A stretch of 15,816 nucleotides of DNA from a virus. Its lineage: Duplodnaviria > Heunggongvirae > Uroviricota > Caudoviricetes. The position numbers are program-made. The stretch lies in the IMG/VR virus record IMGVR_UViG_2917408641_000001; one strand, given 5' to 3'. Positions 1-3,000 of the stretch are shown here, in pieces (the first letter of the stretch is position 1; every line of letters begins with the position of its first letter).

Positions 1-3000
1 TTAACCCACTAGCCAGATCAACATCACAATGATGACGACGAATAATATCCACAGGCTGGGGCGCATTGACATTTCTTTCATCGTGTCAATTAATGGGGTA
101 AAGGGATTGAGCAGCGGTTGAATATCACGCGGTTCAATGCCTTTCACCCGCCGCTGATAGAGCTGGTTAAGGATATCTTCGGCCTGTGCAGACGTCAGGG
201 CTGATTGTGTTGAAAGCCCATACTTTTGCTCAACATACGTCGATAATACCGTCAACTCGCTTGCATCCAGTGGCTGCTTTAGCGCCATCTGGAGTGACTC
301 CAGCGTCGGAGTGTGTTGCTGACTTAACGCCTGACGAGCCTGTAACCAGGTGACCAGATGGTTAAACAGTTTCGCCGGAATCAACTCGCCATCTTTCACC
401 CCTGAAAGTTCCAGCATCGATTGCCAAATCTGTTTGCTGGGTTCCCCTGTTGCCGCCGCGAGTTTGGTGACCAGTTGCTTGAGCGTATTGTGTTCCGCTG
501 GTAATAAAGGTCGGTCGGTCGCCTGGCGCTGTTGCGGCTGCGGGATAACCATCTTCCCTTCCTGTAGTAGCGTCAGGACGGTTTTTAATTGCTCTGGTGA
601 GAGTTGATTTAGCGGCGTCTGACCAAAGTTATGCCGGATATAATCCGTGACGGCCTGACGATTATTTCCCAGACGTAAATACTCCCCCAATTGGGCCAAA
701 AGTTGGCGGACAGAATAACTTTTTTGCGCAGACAGCAAACGTTGCGCAAGGTTTTGTTCTGCTGCCGGGAAATGGCGTGAAAGCAAAGGTGAATCACCCG
801 GCAGACCGATGTCGTGCTTTATATTGGCCCACAACTCTGCGCTCTGCTGTTGCGTCAGCGAAGTCACTTTGATCATCAAACTTTCCAACGCGGTACGTTG
901 CAAGCTGGATAAAGGCTGATTGCCTGCGCCAGACGACAGGTTATCCCCTTGACCTGGTGGTTGCGCAGGAGGAGGGCCTGAAAGAGGTTGTATCATTACG
1001 TATCCTTATACCTGAAATCATCGCAAGTATGCCTGGCCGCGAGATTATGGCACACTTGTCCGGTTAACTCTCGTTCTCATACAGGTAGCACAAACGTGAA
1101 AATCCTTGTTGATGAAATAAATGATAATTTAATTTATTGATATAACAGCGTTTATATCATCGAGTGTCCACGCAGTGACCACATTTTCGAGAGGTGGCGA
1201 ACGCCCGCAATATTGCGGGCTTTGTTTTATTAAAAATTCCTTATCCGATTCTTCATCATTAGAGTGATTGCAATACGATGTATTTCTGTGAAAGGTTGCG
1301 GTAAGGATGCAGATTAGTAGTCTTAATGTCTGTTGCTATCTCATTGTATCTATTTATCCTGGATATGATTAATGTTGCTATGGTTTGGGAACAGCCCAGC
1401 CCAGGCCATGTTCTTTCACCGTGGTAGTTTGCTTACAATGCGGACATTTTAGATTAACCTGAGTCATCAGAATCCCTTCGATAAAAACGGGGAGTATATC
1501 TGATGATCTCCAGTTTGAATATATGGCCAGAAAATCTCATGAAAAAATGTCAATAAATATAACCACATATGGAGCCTTCATCGTAAAAACGCCAAATGCA
1601 TCAATGCCTTTCAAGATATATCAAGGTGGTGGAGTAAAGAAGGTAGTTTTTAAAAGCCAAGTAATCATGAATGTCTTATATATTACACAGATTGTTTTTC
1701 ATGAAGTAAAGGGCTTGTTGCATAGGGCAGATGTTACTTGAATTACAATAAGCCCCTGAAATTTCTTATAAAAACATATCTGTAATTATTTTAAGTCATT
1801 TTCCTTTTGGATTCTTTCTGAGGCATATTTTAAAACCTCAGGTTTTTTACTAATTGCCTCGGATACGATGTTATCATTATCACGTAATCTTTCTGAGGCA
1901 TATTGGAGTGTGGTTGCATCCTGTTGTATTGCGTGACGAATAATTTCTTCATTATCAGTTAGTGATTTAGGGAAGTTCTTAAGACAGACAGGGGAAAAAG
2001 CTATTATTTGCTTAGCAAGCGATAAGTTTTTTTCTAGTTGATCCTCTATATAGAATATAGCATCACTGTCATTCATCAAAGCACGACTTACAATGCTGAA
2101 ATCGTTTTTCAACCGCTCAGAAGCATAATACAATACACGGGCATCCTTGATAACGTTGGAGTAAATAAAATCGTAGTTATCTAGCTCTGATGTTGGCACG
2201 TATTCTCCAATACCGCCGACATTCATTTTAATGTTATTAATGTTATAATCACCATCTTTTATAAATATGTGCCTTGGAACTTTTAGTTCAGGACGATAAA
2301 TACCATTAATAATACTATTGAAAGAGTCGTTGTCATTAGCAGACAACAAATTATCCTGGTCTTTCAATGGTAATTCGCGGAATTTTTTAATTAATGATAG
2401 AGCAAGGCCTGTTTTAAAATCTTTTACCAGAAACATATTTTCTTTTAATGAGAGTTCCTTAAATGACAAGATGTTGTGTGCTTCTTCACTTATATTACTG
2501 ATATGGTTTTTTGTGTTTCCAGTTTCACTAAATATTTGTTCCTGAAGACTAATCCATGACACTTGAGAGAAAACTGGCATATTAAAATTTATGGCATACA
2601 TGGTTTTACCGAAGCGACTGCTCTTTTTTAATCCCCCTGTTCCTGGCTCTATAGCAAAAAAAATAAAATCATCATTACCCAGTGTTTTTATATCTGGACT
2701 GGCTGCATGAGATCCCCAAGGCAAGGCTGTATTGCGTTCTTCCAGTTTTTTCTTTGAAAATAAGGTTAATGTGTTTTTTTGATTTATAATATTACCATTC
2801 GTAGCATGTGTTGCTGTAAATCCTAATCTGGAAATTCTATCAAAAAATACTATTTCTTTTTCACTTAATGGTGCAAGCTCTTTAGATAACATACTTATAT
2901 TTTCTGATGATATTTTTTGCATGGTAGCAAACCCCTTTGCATTATTAATGCTTTCTTTCCAAATCTCCCCTTCAGAAAACATATGCGCATACGATTTATC

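Follow-up and report, generated by a model that had tools for sequence, protein, structure and literature searches.

A probable left-end remnant of an IS1-family element in the low-GC cargo of a gutted P2-like prophage of Escherichia marmotae

Introduction

Elements of the IS1 family, the classical IS1 included, share the layout of their left end, which consists of a terminal inverted repeat, a short leader and the opening of insA with its CxxC zinc ribbon. One lineage within this family is recognised by an InsA start reading MAKVDVKCPFCKQT..VKKHGLG, also written MAKVDVKCPF C(K/E/Q)QT..VKKHGLG, and has been found on plasmids of Buttiauxella, Klebsiella, Serratia, Pantoea and Moellerella. Its members include the annotated IS1-family transposases WP_121813101.1 (Buttiauxella sp. 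3AFRM03 pBTX_120) and WP_172685510.1 (Klebsiella pneumoniae pKP007), together with WP_142816655.1 (Serratia liquefaciens), WP_110412028.1 (Pantoea vagans) and WP_241543997.1 (Moellerella). The Ogr/Delta activators of P2/186/P4-type phages form another class of small proteins with an N-terminal CxxC, and in a related E. coli P2-like prophage the ogr gene is located near the att end.

The present work concerns a short minus-strand ORF within the window, that is, the whole stretch of 15,816 nucleotides analysed here (virus record IMGVR_UViG_2917408641_000001), whose positions 1-7198 are 100% identical to CP025979.1, the chromosome of Escherichia marmotae HT073016 (PMC6650469). A sequence-only reading had taken this ORF for a decayed InsA-like fragment, separate from and older than the intact IS1 nearby, and had offered a truncated Ogr-type activator as an alternative. 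Our analyses make it very probable that positions 1400-1528, on the minus strand, represent an inactive left-end remnant of an IS1-family element, comprising a 23-bp left terminal inverted repeat (IRL), a 38-nt leader and codons 1-23 of insA. Elements of this kind are already known, and the relic, as a piece of one, is nothing new in kind.

Results

The island in which the relic lies is flanked by a 21-nt direct repeat (1162-1182 and 15786-15806, identical at 20 of 21 positions), which is likely the att core and whose right copy is located at the 3' end of the integrase ORF. Next to the left copy, positions 1183-1230 are the last 48 bp of a P2-like prophage and are 87.5% identical to the DNA beside the DNA methyltransferase of Escherichia phage Chuche; homology to E. 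coli ends at 1230. On the other side, positions 6586-15816 are 95% identical to the early regions of E. coli P2-like prophages, including ParM, gpA, cox, C and int. The prophage is gutted, every late gene from ogr to Q being absent: the segment 4563-6586 carries a hok block and an IS3-family element (orfA 5045-5344, orfB 5341-6195) and borders directly on the early region with StbB/ParM and gpA. From the phage end to hok, the place of the methyltransferase/com module is occupied by low-GC DNA (30-36%) containing the relic, a gene for a 470-aa protein, a resident IS1 (3532-4297) and, directly to the right of the latter (4310-4516), a fragment with the C-terminal third of a DUF4875 domain only. 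As a separate observation, the prophage early region yielded Rfam matches above the gathering score to the C4 antisense RNA (11424-11511, minus strand, 80.2 bits) and to the Hfq-binding RNA isrK (11547-11621, minus strand, 64.1 bits), both inside or beside an Ash-family ORF (11061-11678).

The ORF occupies positions 1378-1467 of the minus strand, with its ATG at 1467, 29 sense codons down to 1381 and a TAG at 1380-1378, and its translation is MTQVNLKCPHCKQTTTVKEHGLGWAVPKP. Both this 29-codon frame and the resemblance to the N-terminus of the InsA encoded at 3589, which had been noticed before, are real: in a single BLASTP comparison the peptide matched the intact InsA (3589-3861) at 11 of 21 residues with one gap (E 1e-5). 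The similarity goes beyond chance. When the peptide was compared with plasmids by tblastn (PLSDB, 7.3 Gb), the starts of IS1-family insA genes ranked first, with 56-61% identity over residues 1-25, and four of the five best matches corresponded to annotated IS1 elements or to fragments that we read as insA. Profile searches were less specific. The Pfam family Zn_ribbon_InsA (PF03811) gave a partial match of 17.6 bits, where the gathering cutoff is 26.1, spanning profile positions 1-20 of 35; DUF7560 scored marginally higher (19.2 bits), and NCBIfam returned weak, generic CxxC matches only. No curated family threshold in Pfam or NCBIfam was reached by the peptide alone, which carries just the first CxxC of the Cys4 zinc ribbon of InsA. 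Although the score against the InsA ribbon profile is below threshold, homology of the 23 codons is nevertheless established at the DNA level (E 1e-27).

The DNA-level homology is decisive, and the matches include non-coding sequence. A blastn search of positions 1183-1800 against plasmids aligned 1400-1521 to a Buttiauxella locus annotated as IS1-family transposase (83.6% identity, E 1e-27), 1431-1529 to a Yersinia ruckeri plasmid (84.8%, E 1e-21), 1406-1534 to a Scandinavium plasmid (79.8%, E 4e-22) and 1400-1532 to an Enterobacter plasmid (74.4%, E 2e-14). The IS1-family element of Klebsiella pKP007 is 77.9% identical to the relic over 122 nt, without gaps, from inside the IRL to codon 23. 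Among full-length relatives, identity reaches only about 84% in the closest one. Protein and nucleotide searches against the IS1 family had been proposed as a check; the top tblastn matches are insA starts, and the blastn matches to IS1-family left ends range from E 1e-27 to E 1e-14.

These alignments resolve the relic into three parts. The IRL (1506-1528, minus strand, 23 bp, GGCCATATATTCAAACTGGAGAT) is identical at 18 of 23 positions to its counterparts in Buttiauxella and Klebsiella; lying 39-61 nt upstream of the ATG, it is the degraded inverted repeat that the sequence-only reading had proposed to look for within about 60 bp upstream. Its limits were defined by the inverted-repeat pairs of full-length elements. 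The two ends of the Klebsiella pKP007 element (positions 1139-1162, the 24 nt corresponding to the relic IRL, and 1904-1927 of locus L005) are 96% complementary, those of the Pantoea element (1140-1164 and 1902-1926 of locus L006) are 84% complementary, and in multiple alignments the similarity among seven sequences was lost directly outside the terminal GG. The untranslated 38-nt leader (1468-1505, minus strand) lies inside the gapless blastn matches and shares 34 of its 38 nucleotides with Buttiauxella and 31 with Klebsiella. It is followed by codons 1-23 of insA (1399-1467, minus strand, MTQVNLKCPHCKQTTTVKEHGLG), encoding the first half of the zinc ribbon and identical to the Buttiauxella insA at 54 of 69 nucleotides. 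The remainder of the ORF (1378-1398, minus strand), six codons reading WAVPKP plus the TAG, lies beyond 1400, resembles no IS1-family element and is fortuitous read-through past the truncation point. The 29-codon ORF consists of 23 insA codons and six unrelated ones up to the first chance stop. Compared with Buttiauxella, nine of the 23 insA codons are identical, five differ synonymously and nine non-synonymously, whereas two intact genes of the lineage differ from each other by five non-synonymous and seven synonymous codon changes; these ratios, small as the numbers are, are compatible with relaxed constraint and decay.

Homology stops abruptly at 1400, with exactly the same end in two independent blastn matches. 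Positions 1183-1399 contained no IS1-like sequence detectable by blastn or by blastn-short against whole IS1-family elements, which gave chance matches of 8-10 nt only, and they did not match the 3' ends of five IS1-family elements in a blastn-short search for a right inverted repeat (IRR). A repeat search with seed 6 detected no inverted repeat between 1300 and 1600. The AT-rich DNA at 1231-1398, which separates the prophage end from the relic and holds no right inverted repeat of the latter, is orphan, without a match in E. coli genomes, phages or plasmids. Past 1400 the relic lacks the second CxxC as well as the InsA helix-turn-helix (HTH, PF12759), the A6C -1 frameshift site and the InsB' DDE domain (PF03400), the last three of which are all present in the resident IS1. 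No other insertion sequence abuts the break. A CTGGG duplication at this point was considered as a frameshift and discarded, since direct reading indicated that removal of one copy restores neither the InsA frame nor its sequence. The rest of the element, which presumably extended towards att and flk, would have been removed by deletion or rearrangement. Of the two ends that a target-site duplication of 8-10 bp would flank, only one survives. With one CxxC of two and without HTH, frameshift site, InsB' DDE domain or right end, neither a DNA-binding InsA or transposase nor mobilisation is possible, and we infer that the fragment is devoid of function. Conservation of the relic is 100% among the four assemblies in which it occurs, three of them additional to the present one and sharing its neighbouring protein; this is uninformative on constraint because the four assemblies are near-identical strains.

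Left-end fragments of the same lineage recur in other genomes. In E. coli, a fragment that has lost both start codon and CxxC lies in the Flag-2 locus (strain 4/1-1, about 3990-4090 of locus L001) and was found in 408 of 5,426 complete genomes; one on a Y. ruckeri plasmid (L013) is broken after codon 12, and one on an Enterobacter plasmid (L003) after about 40 codons. The three are independent and unannotated. Since these sister fragments are broken at differing points, the recurrent part corresponds to insertion-sequence debris and not to a conserved small gene. A family pattern had no match among species-representative genomes, and a back-translated MTQVNLKCPHCKQT pattern had none among metagenome contigs, where the clade pattern matched once, at another Buttiauxella-type IS end no closer than the 83.6% already recorded. 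Neither scan contained an intact element closer to the relic.

Recurrence of the fragments is one of three observations that could favour a different interpretation, namely a MITE-like IS1 derivative with both ends, or a small gene or promoter module exapted, for example, for transcription towards flk. The other two are a single sigma-70-like match on the minus strand (-35 at 1545-1540, -10 at 1523-1518, the latter inside the IRL) and the lack of any minus-strand terminator found between relic and flk. However, one promoter-like site is below the chance expectation of 3.1 +/- 2.0 in shuffled sequences, neither an inverted repeat in 1300-1600 nor an IRR-like sequence in 1183-1399 was found, and the recurrent fragments, besides their differing breakpoints and the missing ATG and CxxC of the E. 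coli one, conserve no peptide. Zinc ribbons of this type are Cys4 structures, half of which cannot chelate zinc by itself, and this also argues against an exapted peptide. There is no Rfam family at the relic, and a tRNA scan of it gave nothing. We consider this interpretation very unlikely. As candidate for the missing end of a miniature or internally deleted element, positions 1345-1368 appeared faintly IRR-like by eye (about 14 of 21), though the similarity was supported neither by the repeat search (seed 6) nor by blastn-short, and it was rejected. A scenario in which the IRL and the short ORF were co-opted, be it as an outward promoter or leader feeding the region upstream of flk, as a tiny half-ribbon peptide or as one of several solo left ends of the lineage that persist through titration of InsA, would likewise be most improbable. 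With only one end left, half of a zinc ribbon and no transposase, the relic can neither transpose nor regulate. Residual activity as a weak promoter overlapping the IRL, or as a binding site for InsA, is conceivable but improbable.

Still less credit can be given to the proposal that the ORF (1378-1467) is a truncated Ogr/Delta zinc-finger late-gene activator of the P2-like prophage, placed near its att-proximal end. Like Ogr, the peptide does have a CxxC close to the N-terminus, and in the related E. coli prophage (L007), which shares the flk integration site, ogr lies about 1.5 kb from att. Yet Ogr_Delta (PF04606) was not matched by the peptide in Pfam at E<=1, pairwise BLASTP against the Ogr of that prophage gave 3 of 13 identities, around the CxxC only, and tblastn of the same Ogr against the window returned nothing at 1378-1467 even at E<=100. 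A Cys4 finger (CX2C ... CX4C) within about 72-90 aa is not what the ORF encodes, with its one CxxC and its stop after 29 codons, and no second cysteine pair occurs in any frame continuation of it. Moreover, the DNA that precedes the ORF, made up of IRL and leader, is non-coding and homologous to IS1-family elements. Synteny points the same way. In the E. coli flk-site prophage the gene order is att-methyltransferase-com-hok-ogr-D; as the hok block is kept in the window at 4563-4981 (90% identical to that prophage, about 3 kb to the right of the ORF), ogr would lie to the right of 4981, where the IS3-family element now sits. Taken together, the Pfam, BLASTP, tblastn and synteny data refute the Ogr-type alternative that the sequence-only reading had left standing, and the chance that it holds is negligible.

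The left-end remnant also had to be compared with the intact resident IS1 (3532-4297, plus strand), which contains insA (3589-3861), insB' (3888-4283), inverted repeats at 3532-3554 and 4275-4297 and an A6C site, and whose Pfam matches are Zn_ribbon_InsA, HTH_Tnp_IS1 and DDE_Tnp_IS1. The 5' ends of the two insA sequences are identical at only 30 of 60 bases over 20 aligned codons (50%), and the two IRLs at 11 of 23. Of the 30 mismatches, 15 fall on third positions and as many on first or second ones, and roughly every other codon is non-synonymous, so that the earlier statement that the sequences differ mostly at synonymous positions is wrong. The relic is nonetheless not a recent copy of the resident IS1, since nearly every conserved residue has a different codon. 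An origin by recent partial duplication of the resident element or by gene conversion from it, as the alignment of the peptides at 11 of 21 residues and the distance of less than 2.1 kb could suggest, is refuted by the low identity in codons and IRLs; in addition, a repeat search found no repeat shared by the two regions, and the relic is 78-85% identical to another IS1 lineage. As this lineage differs from that of the resident IS1, the relic represents a separate, older insertion, an idea already put forward for the InsA-like peptide and now sharpened to a 129-bp left-end remnant of a different IS1 lineage.

In the census of insertion sequences of E. marmotae HT073016, IS1H is the sole IS1-family entry, with one chromosomal and two plasmid copies (PMC6650469). 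The resident IS1 is probably the single chromosomal IS1H of that census (PMC6650469), and because no other IS1-family name appears in it, no intact cognate of the relic has been reported in this host (PMC6650469). The resident element itself lacks a 9-bp target-site duplication, being preceded by TCTAAAGTT (3523-3531) and followed by AAATGGACT (4298-4306), an absence suggestive of rearrangement at one end.

The neighbouring 470-aa gene (1786-3198, minus strand, GC 30-35%) encodes a protein whose residues 40-344 match Shigella OspC3, a protein of solved structure (7wr3/7wr4, E 1.6e-8). Similarity extends to the arginine ADP-riboxanase CopC of Chromobacterium (E 7e-5), and the C-terminus has three DUF4116 repeats (Pfam E 3.4e-26); the protein has no NCBIfam match and no relatives among GTDB species representatives. 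The gene may encode a divergent type III secretion effector; a Shigella-like T3SS is plasmid-borne in this species. The segment containing it (1529-3531) is flanked by two IS1-family left ends, at 1506-1528 and 3532-3554, in inverted orientation and with the IS bodies facing outward. Such a geometry resembles that of a composite transposon, but the two IRLs share only 11 of 23 positions and belong to different lineages.

The public annotation leaves the relic unmarked and calls instead a 72-aa ORF on the opposite strand (1523-1741, plus strand). This ORF begins inside the relic IRL, runs through AT-rich orphan DNA and has no Pfam or NCBIfam match; it is probably a spurious call. The small flanking ORFs at 1326-1427, 3253-3366 and 3376-3522 likewise matched nothing in Pfam or NCBIfam.

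Discussion

Very probably, the parent element of the relic inserted into low-GC cargo that had taken the place of the methyltransferase/com region in a P2-like prophage beside flk in E. marmotae. In itself, the relic carries little weight beyond annotation hygiene and belongs to ordinary genomic debris, although its identification clears away the false lead of a truncated Ogr regulator. Its most interesting neighbour is the gene for a distant OspC3/CopC-like effector, and two IS1-family left ends around low-GC cargo in a gutted P2-like prophage are a plausible trace of the arrival or rearrangement of this effector.

Among known systems, the Ogr/Delta activators have in common with the peptide small size and an N-terminal CxxC, and they differ from it in lacking any similarity beyond that pair, in their second cysteine pair and in their position relative to hok. 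The resident IS1 shares with the relic the family, the left-end layout and 11 of 21 residues, but it stems from another lineage, as reflected by the 50% nucleotide identity in the shared codons and the 11 of 23 matching IRL positions; recognition of the relic end by the resident InsA or transposase seems unlikely. The MAKVDVKCPFCKQT lineage is the closest. Relic and lineage agree in the IRL (18 of 23), in the 38-nt leader (31-34 of 38), in the start of insA, placed 61 nt from the tip in both, and in codons 1-23 of this gene, where nucleotide identity is 72-78% and the residues KCP.C.QT...VK.HGLG are shared. In contrast to these elements, the relic retains just the first 129 bp of roughly 790 bp, without second CxxC, HTH, A6C frameshift site, insB' or IRR, and it departs from the lineage at the otherwise conserved residues A2T, K3Q, D5N, V6L, F10H and K19E.
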